A DNA stretch of 17,583 nucleotides from a virus (Duplodnaviria > Heunggongvirae > Uroviricota > Caudoviricetes): the IMG/VR virus record IMGVR_UViG_2609459845_000009; one strand, 5' to 3'. Below are positions 1 to 14,252 of the stretch, one piece after another. Below the pieces are notes generated by a model that saw nothing but the letters and a program-made list of their open reading frames with translations, had not been told where the DNA came from and made no database searches. Positions within the stretch are counted from its first letter, which is position 1. Each line of letters opens with the position of its first letter. The translations under genes were made by a program, and so were the position numbers.

Positions 1-939
1 TACGAATCGGTTGGCTGCAGCGATGCTGATCGGTTTGTTTATGTCTTCTCCAGGGAAAAGAACATCATTGTACGTTGTCATGGCCTTTTCGAGAAAAGGC
101 TTAATTTGTTCGAAGATTGGACGGCGGATAACATTACCCATCTTGCTATGCTCTTTCGGTACGGTCCATACGTTGTCCAGCAGGTCAAATTCTGTCTTTG
201 TTGCCAGCCTAAGCTCTGAGAGCCTCGCCCCCCACAGCATAAGCATCTGATGAAGGAGCTTATTTGACGTAGACGCACGGCTTCTTTCAATAGCAAGCCA
301 AATCTTAGCCAGTTCGTGATACGACAGTACCCGATCCCCTACCTCAGCGCGGGAGCCGAAGTCCCTTGGTTGGATGCTCATAATTGCGCAACTATCTATC
401 AACTGACGCCGCATGCACCAACTTATTGCTGATCTTAGTTGACTTAGCACCTGCCTTGCTCGGCGTGGATTATCTCTTTCTTCTTCGGTAAGCAGGTCAA
501 CCCATTGCTTAACCGTGATAGAAGATGCCGGACGATTAGGAAAGGCGTCATGCATGCGCTTCATAACCGTTGATCGGTAAAGTGCCTGGGTCTTTTCTCT
601 GAGAGTTGTAGAGACGTAGTTGTCGAACCAGTAGTCGAGACACTGGGCGACCGTCATGGAGTTCTCCACCTTCTCTTCAAAATAGGTGCGTGGATCCGTT
701 CCTGAGAAATAGAGCTTTCGCAAGTCAGCAGTGATCTGTCTGGCATCCTTCAAAGACAGGGATGGGTATCGACCAAGCCCAAGTCGATTAGGCTTGCCAT
801 GCCAGCGATAGCGGTACTGGAACTGGATGACCCCCTTCGGTGAAATTCGTACGCTGAGGCCATCGGCATCAGCCACTTCTTGTGGGCCCGAATATGGTTT
901 ACCATAAATAGTACGCAGTTTTGTGTCGCTTATAGCCAT
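1..939 (-). CDS. int: Tyrosine integrase, P4-like family, partial (C-terminal catalytic part lies beyond window start)
   Basis: Minus-strand ATG at 939-937; own translation gives MAISDTKLRTIYGKPYSGPQEVADADGLSVRISPKGVIQFQYRYRWHGKPNRLGLGRYPSLSLKDAR..., the DG-GL / RYR-GK / LGxYP-SL-AR pattern of the arm-binding N-terminus of P4-type integrases. Frame stays open to position 1 where checked (939-781 and 60-1). Missing from the supplied ORF track because it runs off the edge. Confidence 0.8.
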   Translation of the reverse strand, partial: MAISDTKLRTIYGKPYSGPQEVADADGLSVRISPKGVIQFQYRYRWHGKPNRLGLGRYPSLSLKDARQITADLRKLYFSGTDPRTYFEEKVENSMTVAQCLDYWFDNYVSTTLREKTQALYRSTVMKRMHDAFPNRPASSITVKQWVDLLTEEERDNPRRARQVLSQLRSAISWCMRRQLIDSCAIMSIQPRDFGSRAEVGDRVLSYHELAKIWLAIERSRASTSNKLLHQMLMLWGARLSELRLATKTEFDLLDNVWTVPKEHSKMGNVIRRPIFEQIKPFLEKAMTTYNDVLFPGEDINKPISIAAANRFV

Positions 940-947
940 AAATAATA

Positions 948-1243
948 TTTGGTACGCTCAAAAATAATGGTTTGGTACACATCTGGTACACAATATCACA
1001 TGGACAACAGCGCACAGTAAACAACTATATTTGACGTTCGTAGACATACTCAGGTTAAAAAAGGGTTGTTTTTCGAGTTATAACAGACAGTTAATTAACT
1101 ACAGTGGACAATGCTAGACAATGACAGGCACAGATAAACAACCTACCTTCCTCTTTCACGATTACGCGCAATACCCCTGAGAACCGCCATGAACAAGGGT
1201 TTCATGATTTGTGATTTTAGTTTGGTACGCAATTTGGTACACA
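948..1243. repeat. Five direct copies of TTGGTAC(A/G)C in two clusters (950-992 and 1223-1243) in the region upstream of int
   Basis: Read directly: TTTGGTACGC 948-957, TTTGGTACAC 971-980, CTGGTACACA 983-992, TTTGGTACGC 1221-1230, TTTGGTACAC 1234-1243, all same orientation. Confidence 0.5.
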
Positions 1244-1252
1244 ACACTATTT

Positions 1253-1651
1253 TCACTTCAGCGGGTAGTCATCAAACTCACCAGTCCGCGCGTCATTGAT
1301 GATGTACGTCACCACCCCCTTCACTACGACTCGTTCCTCACAATCGTCGTCAGTTATCCATGTCTTTTTATCAGCGTGGTCCAGTTCTTCCAGGTGCACC
1401 TTTGGCAGCAGCCTGAGACGCAACAGCCGTATCTGGTCATTCAGATGACAAATCACCAGGCTTCCGTCTACCGGAGTCAGCGATGTGTCCATGACCAGCA
1501 GAGCCCCTCTCTTGATTCCTTCCCGCCATGATGTAGCAGCGTAACGGATGAAGAATGTCGCCGCTGGTTTTCGTATCAACTCCTTGTCGAGTGAGATCGC
1601 ATCCTCGTGGTAATCAGCAGCAGGGCTGGGAAACTGTGACATGGCAACCAT
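1253..1651 (-). CDS. UmuD'-like protein (LexA/UmuD S24 peptidase fold; pre-processed HumD-like form)
   Basis: 132-aa ORF; N-terminus MVAMSQFPSPAADY matches the FPSPAADY segment that follows the Cys24-Gly25 cleavage site of E. coli UmuD (recalled). Ser of the GDSM motif is retained (ATSW), but the catalytic Lys position appears to be Arg/Leu. GAGGTGA Shine-Dalgarno upstream. Confidence 0.7.
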   Translation of the reverse strand: MVAMSQFPSPAADYHEDAISLDKELIRKPAATFFIRYAATSWREGIKRGALLVMDTSLTPVDGSLVICHLNDQIRLLRLRLLPKVHLEELDHADKKTWITDDDCEERVVVKGVVTYIINDARTGEFDDYPLK

Positions 1652-1666
1652 AACTCACCTCATTGG

Positions 1667-1686
1667 CACTGTATGTACATACAGTA
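1667..1686. promoter_or_regulatory. LexA (SOS) box CTGT-N8-ACAG upstream of the UmuD'-like gene
   Basis: CACTGTATGTACATACAGTA, an 18-bp perfect palindrome with CTGTATGTACATACAG at 1669-1684, about 18 nt upstream of the start codon at 1651. Confidence 0.7.
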
Positions 1687-1697
1687 CCAATGCATGG

Positions 1698-1740
1698 ATT
1701 TTGATCGTTGCAACCGATCGATTTGAAGATTTTGATCGTT
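1698..1740. repeat. Two 13-bp direct repeats GATTTTGATCGTT (1698-1710, 1728-1740) carrying three GATC sites in the divergent promoter region
   Basis: Read directly; GATC at 1703-1706, 1716-1719, 1734-1737; repeat spacing 30 bp. Confidence 0.45.
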
Positions 1741-1830
1741 ATTTCCCATAACCAAATAGTGAGCAATTTTGGGACATTTATTATAAATTTAAATTGTCTT
1801 TAAATATAAATATCCAATCGGTAAATCATC

Positions 1831-3117
1831 GTGAAAAATAATTCCGCGCTGTTTGTTGGTTCTTTTTTTGAAAGTGACCAAAGCTCAAAAGTAAACCTGG
1901 CATTATCTTATGATGGAGAACGATTCGAAAAAATAAAGGCTCAATTCCTTTGGGCTATTGGTGGAACTGGAGAAGTTTTAGGGAGAGACCCATCAATTAT
2001 TTATCACAACGGTTGGTGGTTAATAGCCGTATCAGGATATACAGAAAACGTTTATGACGTCGATTGCTGGCGCTCACGTGATTTAACCGTGTGGGAACTG
2101 GTACGAATTAAGCTTGGCGATACGCCAGTCTGTGGGAAACGATTACCGGGTTCAGATCTGGTGACCACTGACGTGTGGGCTCCTGAATGGTTTGTTGATG
2201 ACGAAAATCTGTTCCTGATAGTCAGCCTGCGTTATTACAACGATCAGACTGACAGTAAAGGTGTAAATGTCAAAAGTTTTAAAACATTCTATTCTGTCTG
2301 TTCTGATGTTGAGAGACTGGAGTTTTACGATCCGGTTGCGGTAAATATCGAACCAAAAAACATGATTGATTCTGTTTTTTCCAGAATATTCCAGACGTAT
2401 TACCTGACAATAAAAGATGAAATCACCAAAAAAATTGAGGTGTATTGTTCAAATTGTTTCTCAGGACAGTTCACGAAATTATCAGTAATTCCGTTTACTC
2501 AGGCGGCGGAAGGCCCGGCGCTGGTTTATTTGCCGGACGGCACGATCAGAATCTATGCGGATTTTTTCGACACAAAAAAATGGACTTATTTTGTAGACAC
2601 GAAAGACTTCGTGACGTTCACGCCAGAGCGCCCCGTTTTGTTTGACGGCAGAATTAAGCGCGGGACTATTACAAATGTGCTGAACTGGCGCGATAGTGAA
2701 ACCGCATTGCAGCAACTGTCGGCGCTGTTCTGTGCAAACTCCGGGGATTTACAGCCAGGGAAAATCCACAAGCTCATTGATGTAGCGGGAACGAGCAATA
2801 TCAACGCTACTGATTTAATCTGGTGGCCTGAAACTGGACATTGTTATTTCACCGAGGGGTTATCCGGTAACGTGACAATCAATGCGCTGCCAACTGTTTA
2901 CCCGGACGGGAGTTCGTTTTATCTGATGGTCCGAAGCGCAACGCCGGGAGCTGGTGATCTGACGCTTAAACAGGCTGTCGGCGACCTGTACCACCCGGCT
3001 AATGGCATGGCGATATTTGATGCTGATTTGGTAGTGGCGGCTGGCGGGAACGCCGCATCACGTCTGTTTAGAATGGTGTGCTTTGATGGCCAGTTGTGGG
3101 TTGAGGGGGTTTTCTGA
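1831..3117 (+). CDS. Hypothetical 428-aa protein; N-terminal part resembles a GH43-type five-bladed beta-propeller glycoside hydrolase, C-terminal about 140 aa unassigned
   Basis: Long ORF in an AT-rich island; GTG start (first in-frame ATG is far inside). Motifs in GH43-like order: RDPSIIYHNGWWLIAVSGY, DVWAPEW, AEGPALVYLPDG. No signal peptide. Assignment is motif-level only. Confidence 0.5.
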   Translation: MKNNSALFVGSFFESDQSSKVNLALSYDGERFEKIKAQFLWAIGGTGEVLGRDPSIIYHNGWWLIAVSGYTENVYDVDCWRSRDLTVWELVRIKLGDTPVCGKRLPGSDLVTTDVWAPEWFVDDENLFLIVSLRYYNDQTDSKGVNVKSFKTFYSVCSDVERLEFYDPVAVNIEPKNMIDSVFSRIFQTYYLTIKDEITKKIEVYCSNCFSGQFTKLSVIPFTQAAEGPALVYLPDGTIRIYADFFDTKKWTYFVDTKDFVTFTPERPVLFDGRIKRGTITNVLNWRDSETALQQLSALFCANSGDLQPGKIHKLIDVAGTSNINATDLIWWPETGHCYFTEGLSGNVTINALPTVYPDGSSFYLMVRSATPGAGDLTLKQAVGDLYHPANGMAIFDADLVVAAGGNAASRLFRMVCFDGQLWVEGVF

Positions 3118-3151
3118 TATAATTGTGGCTCAATGAAAATTGGGCCACATA

Positions 3152-4213
3152 ATGAACAATAAAATATTTTCCGTCCAGTATCTTCGTGGAATAGCAGCGC
3201 TACTTGTGGTGCTGTACCATTTTTCTTTTTTTACTCCGCGCTGGTTTGCTAATTTATTTGCAAATGGCATGGTGGGCGTTGATATTTTTTTCATTATCTC
3301 TGGATTTATTATTTATTGGTCAACAATAAATCCTGAGGAATGCAGACCAACGGTATTTATTGTTAAACGATTCGCCAGAATATACCCGCTATTTTTTGTT
3401 GTGTTACTGGTTTCGTTGTTATTGCAACCTGCGCCTGCCACACAATTATCCAGGGGTTTTCTGGTTCTGCACAACGATTACACACTACCCGCTCCGGCGT
3501 TTGGATTTAATCTGCTACCGCCCGCGTGGACATTGACTTATGAAATATCGTTCTACGCTATTTTCTGTATGTGCGCTGCAATAACGACCCGGTATCGAGG
3601 TTCATTGTGTATCGCGCTGCTGATTGCAATCCCGGCAGTGCTACAGGTTGCGTTTAATGGAGGGTTGTCGTTTAACAGCACAGTCACCGCTATCCCTCCT
3701 GCTGACTCGCCGTTTTATGGTCTAATCAGGCTGGCAGGCTCAACGATGTTTTATGAGTTTGCGTTTGGGATTATGTCTGGAATGATATTTGAAAGGTTTA
3801 AATTAATTCTTCCTAACTTAACTGCTATTACTATAGCAATATTCGCATCGGCTTTATTTTTCTATTTTTTCTTCACATTCTCAGACCATACCAGCGGTAT
3901 AGAAGGAATGTTCTTTTTTGCTGCAATATTTTTTGTGGGCGTTTTGATGCTGGATAAATCAAAGGCGGGAGAGATAAAAGCATTATCAATTCTTGGCGAC
4001 CTGACATATAGCATTTATCTCTGTCATTGGCTGGTAATGCAGATGGTACAGAAATTTATTCCGATTGGGGAGTATAAGCACTGGGGCGTCCTTGTCCCCT
4101 GCATGCTTGTTGCTTCTCTGATGATGGCATTCGCAGCTAACCGGATAATTGAAAAACCGTTTATCCGTCTGGCCCGTTCGGCGCTGAAACGCCAGGAGAT
4201 TACGACGCGGTAG
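3152..4213 (+). CDS. Acyltransferase family 3 integral membrane protein (OafA/Oac-like O-acetyltransferase)
   Basis: N-terminus MNNKIFSVQYLRGIAALLVVLYHF is the acyltransferase-3 signature; many hydrophobic segments; 34 nt downstream of the 428-aa gene, same strand. ATG 3152 preferred over the track's TTG at 3140. Confidence 0.8.
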   Translation: MNNKIFSVQYLRGIAALLVVLYHFSFFTPRWFANLFANGMVGVDIFFIISGFIIYWSTINPEECRPTVFIVKRFARIYPLFFVVLLVSLLLQPAPATQLSRGFLVLHNDYTLPAPAFGFNLLPPAWTLTYEISFYAIFCMCAAITTRYRGSLCIALLIAIPAVLQVAFNGGLSFNSTVTAIPPADSPFYGLIRLAGSTMFYEFAFGIMSGMIFERFKLILPNLTAITIAIFASALFFYFFFTFSDHTSGIEGMFFFAAIFFVGVLMLDKSKAGEIKALSILGDLTYSIYLCHWLVMQMVQKFIPIGEYKHWGVLVPCMLVASLMMAFAANRIIEKPFIRLARSALKRQEITTR

Positions 4214-4664
4214 CAGGACGTGGCGGCCATTCAAGGCTGTCACTTAATATCGCTGCTTCATCATTAAACTTCATTTTCTTCAAGGCATCGATATGAGCAA
4301 GCCACTCTTTAAAGGTCGCCTTCTCTTCATCGGTGATGATCTCCAGAATGAGCTTAGAAGGCCAGTGTTCGCTGCTTATATATGCGTTAGCCGCAGAGAT
4401 TAACGCATCTCTCTTTGACTCGGCCTGTGCCAGTTTAAGCGCGAACAGTTCTTCTTTAGTTGGCTCGGGAATTTTTTCCCACGCAGGCATGCCGTCTGGC
4501 CCTGCAACCCTTCGCATGCCGTCTTTAACTGTTGGGTAAAATTCGGCGAAAACACCCATATCAACCGGCACAGCATCACTGTATTCGTCCGTCTTTAACA
4601 GAGAGCTTTCCTTGAAAACAAAAGCGTTGCTTTTGGCACTATATAAAAAATCTGAATCAGACAT
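4200..4664 (-). CDS. tfa: Tail fibre assembly protein (Tfa family)
   Basis: 154 aa; position directly downstream of a tail-fibre C-terminal fragment with TAATG stop/start overlap; C-terminal region (DEEKATFKEWLAHIDALKKM...DSLEWPPRP) resembles Tfa chaperones from memory. Confidence 0.7.
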   Translation of the reverse strand: MSDSDFLYSAKSNAFVFKESSLLKTDEYSDAVPVDMGVFAEFYPTVKDGMRRVAGPDGMPAWEKIPEPTKEELFALKLAQAESKRDALISAANAYISSEHWPSKLILEIITDEEKATFKEWLAHIDALKKMKFNDEAAILSDSLEWPPRPATAS

Positions 4665-5099
4665 TACGCTCTCCCGATAGCAATCCAGTTAAAAACTGTT
4701 GGCTGCGCAGTAAAGTTGTGGTCGGACGAACTCCAGGTTGCAGAACGAACATTAAAGCTCCCTGCGTTAACCTTTTCGGCACCATACACGGTTAAGAGTT
4801 GATAGATACCGCCGGAGGCTGTCCATCCAGAGACATGGCCTTCTACTGCAAATACCTGGTATGAGCTCATCGCCACACCCATATTCACATTATAAAATCC
4901 GTTACTGTCCGTTGTACCTACATCCATCTGGATGATCATATTGCCAGGAAGGCGAATAACCACACCAGACCCGGTTGTTGTATAGGTAAAGGATGACATA
5001 TCCGGAACTTGCCCGGTAGCCGGTATAAATCACACACTCTCCGACATACACATCATCCGGATGGGCAAACAGCTCTTGTTTGTCTGTGAGCTCTGCCAT
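4664..5099 (-). pseudogene. stf: Side tail fibre C-terminal remnant, truncated at 5' end and split by a frameshift (65-aa + 111-aa ORFs)
   Basis: Two overlapping minus-strand ORFs in different frames (5099-4902 and 4999-4664), ending at the tfa start; no upstream tail-fibre body or any other structural genes. Confidence 0.5.
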
Positions 5100-5456
5100 T
5101 GTTGGCTCCGTTTATCCGTTAAAAGGGATATCAGTTAAGTTATCCCGTGCAGGGTATAAGCCATTGTCGAGACCACTCATTGAATGGCCTCTGCAATAAC
5201 CGATGTCTTTCCATCAGTCCGCCACAACAAAGAATCTTTTTTGCCATAAGGCAGGAGGTTCATCTTTCAGTGGCTGCCAGTGTTATTTCCCCACTTACTG
5301 GCTTGGGTTGTTTTGTGGTACTGCCGTAACTGGTTGCCAAGAATAAATTCCGGTTTCATTATCAAGCCCACCCGTAGATGGGCTTTGTAATGGATAGCCG
5401 TTGCTCAGTTCTCGTAATGCTTTGATTTTTCCGATAACGCAGTTTTGCGTTTGCCA

Positions 5457-5978
5457 TCAGCACGCGATATCGAGAGTCAACTGCAGTTGCTCGCGCCAGT
5501 ACTCAACATTTGCTTCAATAACCGGCTTATCCCATCGCCAGCGAGCCATCTCTCTTGCCCCATTGCTGGCTTTTGATTTCCGGTCATCGCGAATGCGACA
5601 TGCTTGCTCATATTTCTGCTGCTCAGTCAGTTCACCGCGAAGCAGACTATCAATGTGCAGGTCGCACCACACAGCAAAACGAGCATCACACCAACGGGCA
5701 AATGCAACTGAAAGTTTTGGATGTAGCCACGTACCACCACCCCTGTCCTTTCGTGCCTTGCTGGTTTTTACATACCTCGATTGTGAGGGATGTAAAATTT
5801 GAGATTCTTTCCCGGTCAACGCTTCGTCTAAAGCACGAACGTATTCAAGCGTTTCTGCCAAACGCATCCAGTTATCAATGCGTTTTCCAAATCTCTCAGC
5901 AACACCTGTGACGTTGATCCAACCATCAGTGTTGAAACTGACAATTTCACCTTTGTAATTAAGTGGCACGATATTCAT
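5457..5978 (-). CDS. KilA-N domain protein
   Basis: 173 aa; DGWINVTGVAERFGKRIDNWMRL and GTWLHPKLSVAFARWCDARFAVWCD match the KilA-N (APSES-like) domain pattern. Confidence 0.6.
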   Translation of the reverse strand: MNIVPLNYKGEIVSFNTDGWINVTGVAERFGKRIDNWMRLAETLEYVRALDEALTGKESQILHPSQSRYVKTSKARKDRGGGTWLHPKLSVAFARWCDARFAVWCDLHIDSLLRGELTEQQKYEQACRIRDDRKSKASNGAREMARWRWDKPVIEANVEYWREQLQLTLDIAC

Positions 5979-6091
5979 AACGTTTACCTACCATTTGAAA
6001 TGAACCTTTGCCGCATAGGAAACCAGCCCACCGAGGCTCGCCAGCACTAACTGGTATCCTCAAAGGCCCATTCCAAAGGGGCAGGTTCGGT

Positions 6092-6147
6092 GTAAAAAAC
6101 ATGCGTTGCGGTACGCATTTATTGCAAAAAGCCCCGCATCGCGAGGC
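6092..6147 (-). terminator. Two tandem putative intrinsic terminators downstream of Rz
   Basis: On the minus-strand RNA: hairpin GCCUCGC-GAU-GCGGGGC (6131-6147, one mismatch) followed by UUUUU; then hairpin AUGCGU-ACCGCA-ACGCAU (6101-6118) followed by GUUUUUU. Confidence 0.5.
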
Positions 6148-6179
6148 TCATTAAATTGACTTTGTGATTTGCAAAAAAA

Positions 6180-6638
6180 TTATTTCAGGCATTGCGTCCT
6201 GATGTATTCCTGCAGGTAGTTAACCTGCGCGGTTATCTTGTCGATTCCACTTCGGAGACGGTAATAATTGAGTTCAGCATCTGCTGTAAGTCTTGGGCTT
6301 TCTCCATCGCCCATGCTGCTGGCTCCGGTCGTTGACTTTGCACAGGTGGCGGCGACTTGCAGGCGCTTACGACCAGCAGAAACATCAGCACGGAGACTTT
6401 CGATAGTCGCGTTAGCATCAGCAAGCTCCTTTGTATATCTGGCATCGAGTTCTGCTACATCACGTTGACGCTTCCGCATGTCAGCGATGGTGGCGTTCGC
6501 CTTCTCCAGTTCACTGGCCTTGTTATCGCGCTGCTCTTTGTAGGCGATTGCGTTATCACGGTAATGATTGACCGCCCACGACAGGCAGACGATGATGCAG
6601 ATAACCAGAGCGGAGATAATCGCGGTTAACCGACTCAT
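6180..6638 (-). CDS. Rz: Spanin inner-membrane subunit Rz (lambda Rz-like)
   Basis: [34 protein letters not shown]... closely resembles lambda Rz; internal ATG at 6638 chosen over the ORF-track start at 6767. Confidence 0.9.
6233..6418 (-). CDS. Rz1: Spanin outer-membrane lipoprotein subunit Rz1, embedded in Rz in the +1 frame
   Basis: Embedded ORF with lipobox LLVVSAC followed by a proline-rich stretch [12 protein letters not shown]; start at 6418 or 6385 is uncertain. Confidence 0.7.
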
Positions 6639-6726
6639 GACATCAACACCCCAACGGCCAGAAACCACGGCCACGCATCGTTGCCATTCAATGCGAGCAA
6701 CGCTGCCATGAAAAAGCAAATCATGC

Positions 6727-11340: not shown

Positions 11341-12696
<1,356 letters not shown>

Positions 12697-12891: not shown

Positions 12892-13049
12892 AGCATTCAA
12901 AGCAGAAGGCTTTGGGGTGTGTGATACGAAACGAAGCATTGGCCGGAAGTGCGAATCCGGATTAGCTGCAAATGAGCCAATCGTGGGGTGTTTTCGTTCA
13001 GGACTACGACTCACACACACCACCAAAGCTAACTGACAAGAGAATCCAG

Positions 13050-13373
13050 ATGGATGCACAAACACGCCGCCGCGAACGTCGCGCAGAGAAACAGGCTCAA
13101 TGGAAAGCAGCAAATCCCCTGTTGGTTGGGGTAAGCGCAAAACCAGTTAACCGCCCTATTCTCTCGCTGAATCGCAAACCGAAATCACGAGTAGAAAGCG
13201 CACTGAATCCGATAGACCTTACGGTGCTGGCTGAATACCACGAACAGATTGAAAGCAACCTGCAACGTATTGAGCGCAAGAATCTTCGAGTTTGGTATAG
13301 CAAGCCAAGTGAGTTCGGTATAACTTGTCAAGGAAGACAAAAGGTTAAAGGGAAATCCATTCCATTGGCATGA
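13050..13373 (+). CDS. N: Antiterminator N
   Basis: MDAQTRRRERRAEKQAQWKAANPLLVGVSAKPVNRPILSLNRKPKSRVESALNPIDLTVLAEYHEQIESNLQRIERKN... matches lambda N, including the arginine-rich boxB-binding motif; ATG 13050. Confidence 0.95.
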   Translation: MDAQTRRRERRAEKQAQWKAANPLLVGVSAKPVNRPILSLNRKPKSRVESALNPIDLTVLAEYHEQIESNLQRIERKNLRVWYSKPSEFGITCQGRQKVKGKSIPLA

Positions 13374-13523: not shown

Positions 13524-14252
13524 TTGCTTTCAGATGCCCGGACCCAAGCGTTCAGCATACTTCGTAAGCAGATGCAATATCGTCTTCATCCAGGCTACAT
13601 AATTGAAATTCGCCCGACTGAAAGACAATTGTTCTTATTAAACTCTGTCTTTGACTTTGTAAACGTAGTTGGAGATCTTATCGACAGGTCTGTAGATAAG
13701 GCTCCTGATACAAATAGTTTTCTTCTAACAAATAAAGAATACTTATATGGTAAATTTGGTATAAACGGATGGCAAAAATATGTACGATTCTTACGTGCAT
13801 TCGTTGATGCGAATAAAAATTCCGACATGATTTATACATATTTGCCTGGTGGTAATAATTGTACGCTTTCGGCAGACAATAGAATATTCATACCTATACT
13901 TGGTCTTGGGCTGATTAATGCAGTAAATGAAAGAGATGTTATAATTGTTAAGCAGTGGCGAAAGCATGAGGGATATAGATATCTGCCATGCTTTGATATA
14001 TTAAAAATACAGAATAAATTCTATGTAAAAATTAAATATAAAGAAGATGTTTTCTTCCTCAGAAAAAACAAAGATCTTTTACAAGAACTTTCTGGGACAA
14101 TAGATGTCATCGTAGGTTCTAGGTTTATAAAAGAACTGAAAGAAAGCAGGTCTTTCTCTCGTGTAGAGATAAGCGAGTCAGAGTTATGGGGTATATCAAA
14201 TAATCCTGTAAACCACGCTCACCAACGAAATCCAAACAAAAAGTGGTCATAA
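13524..14252 (+). CDS. Hypothetical 242-aa protein in an AT-rich insert between N and ea10 (the ral/sieB position)
   Basis: Long ORF with TTG start at 13524 (the first in-frame ATG, at 13572, would give 226 aa); no recognisable motifs; followed by a hairpin plus T-run. Confidence 0.5.
   Translation: MLSDARTQAFSILRKQMQYRLHPGYIIEIRPTERQLFLLNSVFDFVNVVGDLIDRSVDKAPDTNSFLLTNKEYLYGKFGINGWQKYVRFLRAFVDANKNSDMIYTYLPGGNNCTLSADNRIFIPILGLGLINAVNERDVIIVKQWRKHEGYRYLPCFDILKIQNKFYVKIKYKEDVFFLRKNKDLLQELSGTIDVIVGSRFIKELKESRSFSRVEISESELWGISNNPVNHAHQRNPNKKWS

Follow-up and report, generated by a model that had tools for sequence, protein, structure and literature searches.

A GH43-like protein, predicted to be an anchorless tailspike module, encoded next to an O-acyltransferase gene at the end of Escherichia coli prophages

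The arms race over surface sugars has been studied well, and its two sides are the phage-borne O-antigen acetylases and the tailspike glycanases. In the Shigella phage Sf6, acetylation by Oac hinders the endorhamnosidase of the tailspike and confers superinfection immunity (PMC9558356). An Oac homologue of phage phiV10 modifies the O157 antigen, SfII carries oacD, and acetylation by OafB protects against the BTP1 tailspike (PMC9558356). In some temperate phages the gene for O-antigen modification is found directly behind the gene of the receptor-binding protein (RBP) (PMC10408124). Here, a cassette is described in which both sides appear to be encoded together on the side of the lysogen. It occupies positions 1831-4213 of the viral record IMGVR_UViG_2609459845_000009 (Caudoviricetes; 17,583 nucleotides (nt), the whole of which is called the window) and consists of a gene for a protein resembling glycoside hydrolases of family 43 (GH43), gene 1, followed by a gene for an acyltransferase of the acyltransferase-3 (AT3) family, gene 2. 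Its features are as follows, with protein lengths in amino acids (aa).

1831-3117, plus strand: gene 1, stand-alone GH43-like protein (428 aa, GTG start)
1846-2685, plus strand: predicted five-bladed beta-propeller domain of gene 1 (about residues 6-285)
2758-3114, plus strand: C-terminal domain of gene 1, predicted to be beta-rich (about residues 310-428, GC content 0.525)
3152-4213, plus strand: gene 2, predicted AT3-only membrane O-acyltransferase (353 aa; PF01757, PHROG 3333)

A preliminary description of this DNA, made from the sequence alone, had placed a two-gene cassette at these positions, and both open reading frames (ORFs) were indeed found there, on the same strand and 34 nt apart. 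The ORF of gene 2 opens at a TTG codon at 3140 (3140-4213, 357 aa), and the ATG at 3152 is the start chosen by the gene callers in 6 other E. coli contigs. No terminator was detected between genes 1 and 2 in a consensus scan; the two genes are apparently co-transcribed.

The fold of the gene 1 product was predicted with AlphaFold from a 70-sequence alignment (predicted local distance difference test, pLDDT, 91.9). The model comprises a propeller at about residues 6-285, whose first strand lies at residues 8-13, a helix at 289-303 and a beta-rich domain at 310-428. Based on this model and on the matches of GH43 to 54 of the 70 homologues scanned (E ≤ 1e-3, best 1e-17), the N-terminal 290 residues or so are predicted to form a five-bladed propeller of the GH43 type, as had been proposed. 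For the window protein itself the Pfam scores fell below the gathering cutoffs, both for GH43 (PF04616; 25.0 bits against 32.2) and for GH32N (20.2 bits against 22.1). Because the blades of GH32 and GH130 match the family profile equally well or better, the assignment at family level is loose. The gene 1 family is probably an unclassified sister family to GH43 that is used by phages. No NCBIfam family was matched by gene 1; the window protein (cluster member P0278) is named "glycoside hydrolase family 43 protein" of E. coli by NCBI and UniRef.

The motifs GRDPSI (Asp53), WAPE (Trp116-Ala-Pro), IDS (Asp180) and EGP (Glu227) were all present. Among 96 homologues Asp53 was conserved in 88, Asp180 in 95 and Glu227 in every one, and Trp116 of WAPE was near-invariant or invariant; the preliminary reading of DPSII, WAPE and EGP as family motifs was thus confirmed. 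From their GH43-like order and spacing, Asp53 would be the catalytic base, Asp180 the pKa modulator and Glu227 the acid. The region of the base could be aligned with a known enzyme, residues 51-130 of the query corresponding to residues 12-87 of the GH43 xylosidase 3c2u, and the roles of Asp180 and Glu227 were assigned from motif context and spacing, not from structural superposition. The C-terminal 140 residues or so had been described as compositionally different. This was found to be correct, since the last 139 codons have a GC content of 0.525 and coincide with the separate structural domain of the model. No meaningful sequence match to this domain was found in the PDB, and it is duplicated in many of the tailspike homologues, where second matches to profile positions 313-428 were observed.

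An exhaustive profile search returned 628 homologues at E ≤ 1e-3. Among the 150 best homologues listed, the domain mostly begins at residue 100-360 of a protein of 600-1000 aa. In the 69 best homologues the N-terminal anchors were Tail_spike_N (5), the T7 tail-fibre N-terminus (4), tail-collar (3), P22 head-binding (1) and BppU_N (1), and in the same set 6 proteins carried a Peptidase_S74 chaperone and 2 a GDSL esterase domain. Of the two closest long relatives among the matches listed, one (47% identity) belongs to an array of four tailspikes in a large phage, and the other (41%) is encoded next to the adaptor gene of an SU10-like phage. In a Serratia prophage the domain is fused to a tail-collar fibre, and in a P22-like prophage it serves as the tailspike, with a glycosyltransferase moron adjacent. 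PHROG 18920, "tail protein", also matches gene 1 (2.4e-11). Versions of about 320 aa that carry Sec, Tat or lipoprotein leaders are enzymes secreted by bacteria. As judged from these sequences, the great majority of the relatives of gene 1 are those parts of phage tailspikes and tail fibres that bind the receptor and act as enzymes.

In the window protein the profile match begins at residue 1-6, that is, exactly at the domain boundary. No N-terminal virion-attachment domain was found in gene 1, nor any hydrophobic segment or signal peptide. Given this start at the domain boundary and the lack of an anchor, a signal peptide and a hydrophobic segment, gene 1 is best read as the enzymatic module of a tailspike that has become a free, anchorless protein, presumably cytoplasmic. 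It lies outside the late (tail) operon, on the opposite strand and convergent with the tail fibre assembly gene tfa. The earlier wording, "cytoplasmic glycosidase-like", is upheld as far as the missing signal peptide goes, but an anchorless tailspike or tail-fibre module is not an ordinary cytoplasmic enzyme. No description of such a module paired with an acetylase was found in the literature.

Gene 2 had been taken for an acyltransferase-3 protein, and the Pfam match is unambiguous: PF01757 was matched with 118.4 bits against a cutoff of 31 (E = 4.6e-34), residues 11-332 covering profile positions 3-323 of 326. PHROG 3333, "O-acetyltransferase", was matched as well (1e-56). The protein has at least 7 strongly hydrophobic segments (Kyte-Doolittle mean ≥ 1.6), and the motifs R12...H23 in RGIAALLVVLYH, F46-F-I-I-S-G (FFIISGF) and R73-F-A-R76 (RFARIYP) were located. 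About 10 transmembrane segments, an Arg and a His in the first of them, FFxISG and RxxR are traits of AT3 proteins in the Oac/OafA literature (PMC7448272, PMC9558356). PF01757 was the sole Pfam domain in the 353 aa, and close homologues are all of 345-389 aa. Since no SGNH domain is fused to it, gene 2 is assigned from its sequence to the Oac ("AT3-only") type of membrane O-acyltransferases rather than to the OafA/OafB type. At 36-45% identity it is related to acyltransferases of enterobacteria and Pseudomonas; the only one of these whose context was examined, P0161 from Enterobacter, lies in the remnant of a prophage, together with genes for an Arc-like repressor and an integrase. NCBIfam gave insignificant matches only for gene 2, a tblastn search of the window AT3 against Sf6 gave no match at E ≤ 1e-5, and PADLOC gave none for gene 1, gene 2 or the UmuD-like protein encoded upstream. 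The preliminary statement that the partner of the acyltransferase is not a Gtr protein was correct, as no GtrA, GtrB or type-specific Gtr match was obtained with Pfam, PHROG or NCBIfam for any ORF in 1-6200. The two tailspikes that combine the GH43-like module with a GDSL/SGNH domain would fit RBPs that deacetylate before cutting. Such proteins are a possible counter-move to acetylases like gene 2.

The neighbours of gene 1 homologues were inspected, as had been recommended. In 4/4 diverged loci examined, the gene downstream of the stand-alone homologue was that of the same AT3, and the pair is now known as four diverged alleles, from E. coli, from Cronobacter turicensis and from two metagenomic contigs. 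The order of gene 1 and AT3 is common to the window, L007, the C. turicensis loci L024/L025 and L028, with tfa convergent and overlapping at the 3' end. The pair always adjoins tail-fibre genes and is at the prophage end wherever the contig extends there. Identity to the window alleles was 77-79% for gene 1 and 74-83% for the AT3. Compared with L007 (72% identical as a locus), the amino-acid identities of the two genes were 77% and 78%, a roughly equal divergence, and the proportion of nonsynonymous differences (pN) was about 0.14-0.15 in both, with synonymous sites saturated. For gene 1 the values were pN 0.15 and a saturated synonymous proportion (pS) of 0.76; for gene 2 the ratio of nonsynonymous to synonymous rates, dN/dS, was about 0.06. 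Both genes are real and under strong purifying selection. The most divergent stand-alone relative of gene 1, from Ewingella americana (P0003), is about 61-62% identical to the window allele and to its sisters alike. Since it is equally distant from all other alleles, no acceleration of rate is seen in the window lineage.

The neighbours of the pair have been reshuffled independently of the cargo. In Cronobacter, tfa and the fibre tip are 98-99% identical to those of the window, the cargo is 77-82% identical and the UmuD-like family is a different one. The 3' overlap of tfa and gene 2 is retained in L007, L024, L026 and L028. In L026, a 34-aa C-terminal fragment of a Gin/Pin-type DNA invertase was noticed (6563-6667, minus strand), about 340 bp upstream of the AT3 gene and among the debris of a LysR gene.

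The cassette is located among the following features of the window.

1-939, minus strand: tyrosine integrase, 5' part, the gene continuing beyond the window (megablast, E. coli genomes)
about 1137-1166: putative attachment (att) core of 30 bp, where the dacD-side and sbcB-side junction homologies overlap
1253-1651, minus strand: gene of a UmuD-like S24 peptidase (PHROG 811, 2.2e-40; Pfam Peptidase_S24, 27.7 bits)
1667-1686: LexA (SOS) box CACTGTATGTACATACAGTA, within a 32-nt palindrome (1661-1692) in the divergent intergenic region
4200-4664, minus strand: tail fibre assembly protein gene, tfa (Pfam Caudo_TAP, 54 bits; PHROG 188)
4664-4999, minus strand: tail fibre gene, C-terminal 111 codons (PHROG 1396, tail fiber)

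The start of the integrase coding sequence in L021 corresponds to window position 939; the gene is part of the prophage end on the side of sbcB and is separated from the cassette by the att junction. The UmuD-like gene is divergent from the cassette, and the SOS box, which is near-consensus, lies just upstream of it in the spacer that it shares with the cassette. An equivalent LexA box, TACTGTTTTTATATACAGTA, was found upstream of the Cronobacter pair (L024:5527-5546), where it overlaps a plausible -10 element of the promoter of a UmuD-like gene belonging to a different PHROG family. On the other side, tfa is convergent with gene 2 and their 3' ends share 14 bp. The complete tail fibre gene (243 aa) was found in L002. 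An invertible tail-fibre segment was considered for this region and rejected, as inverted repeats, the AAACCnnGGTTT crossover core and an invertase gene were all missing from the window, L002 and L024 and start codons are conserved.

Beyond the tail-fibre remnant there follow a KilA-N gene, lysis genes and then an early region of the ordinary lambdoid kind, which shares about 97% identity with phage 434 and SfI (against SfI, 96.9% identity over 57% of the query). The cassette had been called AT-rich and said to lie between integrase and tail-fibre genes, and both statements needed some correction. The upstream spacer is AT-rich (GC 0.32), but the propeller part and the AT3 gene are so only mildly (0.42 and 0.43, against 0.466 for the whole window), and the end of gene 1 is not. 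The position is right, but the UmuD-like gene and the att junction intervene, and in other strains it is chromosomal dacD, not int, that borders the cassette.

The protein P0001, a 428-aa cluster representative that differs from the window protein at residue 178 alone, was traced to 9 E. coli contigs, of which 6 were displayed and 5 of those reach beyond the UmuD-like gene. In 5/5 the order was chromosomal yeeX(tmaR), yeeA, sbmC and dacD, then the UmuD-like gene, gene 1, gene 2, tfa and the tail fibre gene, followed by baseplate wedge, baseplate J, sheath-initiator and more tail genes. The homology of the window to L001-L005, which begin with dacD and the umuD-like gene, spans 1137 to 5024. 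Complete E. coli genomes match window positions 1-1166 (megablast), and the annotation there reads tyrosine-type recombinase/integrase followed by sbcB; in L020, dacD and sbcB adjoin each other. Because of these junction homologies (1137 and 1166) and the neighbourhood of dacD and sbcB, the cassette is placed at the att-proximal end of prophages between these two genes. It may thus be described as a moron at the end of lambdoid prophages of the contractile-tail type, located between dacD and sbcB in the E. coli strains examined. The window itself appears to be an attP-like or tandem-prophage junction, which was also seen in an O157:H7 genome. Such an int-att-UmuD junction of the attP type (window 946-1252) indicates tandem prophages or an excised circle. 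A 12-nt motif, TTTGGTAC(A/G)C, occurs there in at least 3 copies (970-981, 1220-1231 and 1232-1243), which resemble arm-type sites of an integrase. The dacD-sbcB spacer is a few genes away from the his operon in E. coli.

The preliminary description had spoken of a moron slot, and the slot did prove to be a hot spot for cargo: an O157:H7 strain has nleG7 at this place, and in a decayed remnant it is taken by an unrelated acyltransferase (34% identity over 82 aa). This remnant (L020:7117-10457, E. coli strain 100416, between dacD and sbcB) is a fully decayed prophage of which an S24-peptidase pseudogene, the unrelated AT3 acyltransferase, IS1 and an integrase pseudogene are left, with nothing else kept. 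It suggests that acyltransferase cargo at the dacD-sbcB site tends to outlast the phage. In the window the entire head and tail module is deleted, and the 111-codon end of the tail fibre gene abuts the KilA-N and lysis region (4664-5457). Structural genes are partly or wholly lost in the window copy, L004 and L005, the latter two being intermediate deletion states of the same prophage, and the cassette is still present in all three.

The cassette gave no match in 5,426 complete E. coli genomes (megablast and blastn), even at low stringency, or in 50,697 phage records (megablast), so it must be rare in both collections. A search for related loci returned only weak Firmicutes matches among genome contigs and only identical copies among viral contigs.

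Elsewhere in the window, a 242-aa ORF (13524-14252, plus strand) forms an island of 34-38% GC between the N gene (12972-13373) and DUF2528/gam, an interval that is a classic lambdoid moron or defence slot. A 158-aa ORF (12220-12696, plus strand) overlaps the 3' end of the 434-type cI gene (11663-12295), at the position of rexAB in lambda. No Pfam or PADLOC match was obtained for either. The KilA-N/ORF11CD3 protein (5457-5978, minus strand) gave a weak PADLOC match to PDC-S22 (E = 1.2e-5, no stretch passing alone), which probably reflects the similarity of a common KilA-N domain and not a defence system.

The window allele of gene 1 differs from its family in one place of possible relevance for catalysis. 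Residue 277 is Arg (codon CGC, 2659-2661), where 93/96 homologues have the His of an R-H-G motif, and the window reads K276-R277-G278. Lys at 276 instead of the family Arg was found in all three stand-alone alleles compared (window, P0002 and P0003). Sister E. coli alleles that differ by 1-4 residues have H277. The Arg form (P0278) was present in 22 contigs and the His form (P0279) in 15, the alleles being otherwise 99% identical; H277R appears to be a recent change. We take the histidine of the family R-H-G motif to be equivalent to the last-blade histidine of GH43 (a motif of the type G-H-x-S/T), and it is this residue that the window allele lacks. In addition, the window gene 1 has a GTG start, a poorer Shine-Dalgarno sequence and a 50-nt AT-rich insertion when compared with relatives that start with ATG.

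The reading that we prefer combines a conversion AT3 with an anchorless tailspike enzyme, both addressing the same glycan and the latter released at lysis. As a whole it is offered tentatively and is given somewhat less than an even chance. Taken separately, gene 2 most likely adds O-acetyl groups to a polysaccharide on the surface of the lysogen, the O-antigen being the probable target, by analogy with the characterised acetylases. Acting as Sf6 Oac and phiV10 Oac do, it would cause a change of serotype and block phages that depend on the glycan. Gene 1, by homology and predicted fold, is the enzymatic receptor-binding module of a tailspike or tail fibre, a GH43/GH159-like propeller with its distal domain, which lost the virion anchor and became a separate protein without signal. 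We infer that the pair originated from the layout in which the gene of a glycanase RBP is followed by a gene modifying that glycan. The two proteins would then address the same polysaccharide, of which the orphan enzyme would recognise the unmodified state, and acetylation would make the glycan of the lysogen itself a poor substrate or ligand for an enzyme of the gene 1 type. In the weakest step of the model the enzyme would stay in the cytoplasm and meet its substrate upon lysis only, release at lysis being the most conservative guess because there is no export signal. Once freed, it would act as a soluble depolymerase of non-acetylated glycan on neighbouring cells and debris, and acetylated lysogens would be spared. 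The simplest account of the cassette is a derivative of the layout of RBP and modifier, an unusual twist on serotype conversion rather than a wholly new system.

Several observations weigh against this reading. The convergence of the cassette with the late tail operon and the overlapping 3' ends argue for expression in the lysogen and not at a late stage of infection, which makes a role by release at lysis indirect. A consensus scan found no promoter in 1652-1830. An E. coli prophage (L026/L027) has the AT3 (72%) with the tfa overlap and no trace of gene 1; the AT3 is therefore not dependent on gene 1 and the pair is not obligate. No AT3 was found beside the fused homologues examined, namely those of Serratia, the P22-like prophage and the lytic phages, and since these four contexts lack it, an ancestral donor with a tailspike gene followed by an AT3 gene was not found for the family. 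Finally, catalysis may be weakened or lost in the window copy, in view of R277, the GTG start and the weaker Shine-Dalgarno sequence.

The same observations have to be weighed for a different explanation, which is unlikely but the most serious of the alternatives: that gene 1 is the orphaned relic or reservoir of a receptor-binding domain, possibly the fossil of an invertible segment, functionless in the lysogen, and that the AT3 is the sole working conversion gene. The geometry, with stf and tfa facing the AT3 gene and gene 1 on the other strand, mimics the Sv-U / U'-Sv' arrangement of Mu G-type segments, and the Gin/Pin-type invertase fragment lies near the AT3-only locus L026. The occurrence of the AT3 by itself in L026/L027 would be expected for a dispensable gene 1, the GTG start, weak Shine-Dalgarno sequence and H277R of the window allele would suit a relic, and the start of the protein coincides with the breakpoint between anchor and domain that is typical of RBP module exchange. 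However, flanking inverted repeats, a gix-like site or an invertase gene were not found in the window, L002 or L024. Further points against a relic are a start codon of its own and the exact length of 428 aa, both retained even in an allele of 61% identity, the conserved catalytic triad, and a pN of 0.15 against a saturated pS with no acceleration of rate.

If gene 1 is functional, it might still have nothing to do with the AT3. The two could be independent morons that share a slot, gene 1 encoding a cytoplasmic glycosidase as an auxiliary metabolic gene, for example for imported furanoside or galactoside oligosaccharides. Many GH43, GH32 and GH130 enzymes are intracellular, and gene 1 has no signal peptide. 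A signal-less stand-alone relative (P0023) was found outside any phage context, beside a molybdopterin oxidoreductase and without an AT3, and the slot is known to gather unrelated cargo (nleG7, the other acyltransferase). The nearest relatives, however, are all virion receptor-binding proteins for surface glycans, and no transporter or regulator accompanies gene 1. The two genes have stayed together at matched divergence in the E. coli, Cronobacter and 2 metagenomic alleles, while the C-terminus of tfa and the UmuD-like gene were swapped. This explanation is considered distinctly unlikely.

A more ambitious version of the preferred reading would liken the pair to a restriction-modification or bacteriocin-immunity system whose target is a surface glycan. 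The glycanase, stockpiled and then freed by the lysing fraction, would strip non-lysogenic kin of their O-antigen or capsule, and the acetylase would mark the glycan of the lysogen as immune self; the LexA box beside the cassette may be relevant to such a release. This is regarded as distinctly improbable. Gene 1 could also act as a partner of the AT3, encoded by a gene of its own, which trims the acceptor glycan or presents it to the enzyme. Whether AT3-only enzymes require a partner is an open question in the field (PMC9558356), but such a role is opposed by the AT3-only locus and the missing signal peptide.

In another explanation, with which the predicted cytoplasmic location of gene 1 would agree, its product edits the glycan inside the cell before export and the AT3 acetylates the edited glycan outside, in a two-enzyme conversion of a new type. 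The targets proposed are repeat units linked to undecaprenyl pyrophosphate, or a polysaccharide polymerised in the cytoplasm, such as ABC-transporter-dependent O-antigens and group 2 capsules. The apparent co-transcription, a layout that suggests expression in the lysogen and the intact catalytic triad under purifying selection would all agree with this. On the other hand, the AT3 is self-sufficient elsewhere, tailspike enzymes normally need a polymer of several repeats, and the cost for the host would be large. To our knowledge, intracellular glycan editing of this kind has no precedent, and we hold the explanation to be markedly improbable. It is more improbable still, to the point of being very remote, that gene 1 is an accessory virion RBP and phage depolymerase docked non-covalently on the short (243-aa) tail fibre, on Tfa or on the baseplate: its proximity to stf/tfa, its virion-protein homologues and the shortness of the prophage's own fibre are outweighed by the lack of a docking domain ahead of the propeller, which begins at about residue 6, by an orientation opposite to that of the late operon, with which the gene converges, and by its retention in prophages without any structural genes (window, L004).

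Under the preferred reading of a conversion acetylase with a free tailspike enzyme, what is new here is the conserved anchorless tailspike module, the GH43 name and the layout of RBP and modifier being already known. Although it lacks a virion anchor, the glycanase is kept by purifying selection in at least two genera, represented by E. coli and Cronobacter, and gene 1 occurs in a third, Ewingella. If the orphan enzyme is active, it would identify the glycan that is modified by the neighbouring acetylase, so that the pair would annotate its own specificity, and it would provide, ready to use, a soluble depolymerase with which that glycan could be typed or stripped. With its 628 homologues, mostly tailspikes, the family represents a large and poorly annotated class of propeller-type phage depolymerases, partly missed by standard Pfam thresholds. 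The preliminary suggestion of an undescribed system was an overstatement, because the arrangement of a glycanase RBP gene followed by an O-antigen-modifying gene is already known (PMC10408124, PMC9558356).

When compared with described enzymes and loci, gene 1 shares with GH43 and GH159, five-bladed propellers of CAZy clan GH-F, the DPS, WAP, ID and EGP motifs and the spacing of Asp, Asp and Glu, but its sequence identity to them is 8-18% and it has the extra C-terminal domain. The layout resembles that of the invertible segments Mu G, P1 C and e14 P, in that stf-tfa faces a pair on the opposite strand whose distal gene is like a tail-fibre domain. It differs from them in having no invertase, crossover sites or inverted repeats; the genes on the opposite strand have their own start codons, and one of them encodes an acyltransferase instead of a chaperone. 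PghP of Bacillus phage phiNIT1 and the phage levanase are reportedly soluble, signal-less hydrolases outside the virion, which are released at lysis and degrade the polymer around neighbouring cells; one enzyme of this type is said to be a five-bladed propeller (GH32). The phages that encode them are reportedly lytic, and no modifying enzyme is known to accompany these hydrolases; for gene 1 the release at lysis is an assumption of the model.

Among the serotype-converting phages, SfI, SfII, SfV and SfX of Shigella are of the same kind and use the same slot, with gtrABC or oacD between the tail-fibre genes and attP. In the present locus there are no GtrA, GtrB or type-specific Gtr genes, and an extra glycanase-like gene precedes the acetylase. 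In phiV10 of E. coli O157 and other Uetakevirus/Lederbergvirus prophages, an O-antigen modification gene stands directly behind the RBP gene (PMC10408124), and a P22-like prophage was found here with a GH43-like tailspike and an adjacent glycosyltransferase moron. Those RBPs, however, are complete podovirus virion proteins, whereas the present phages have baseplate genes of the contractile-tail type and their own tail fibre and Tfa. Sf6 also carries the gene of a glycan-cleaving receptor-binding enzyme and an AT3-only acetylase at the att-proximal end of a temperate phage. Its enzyme, a tailspike with a beta-helix fold and an anchor for head binding, is part of the virion; the enzyme described here is an anchorless GH43-like propeller, whose gene runs opposite to the late genes and apparently shares a transcription unit with that of the acetylase.

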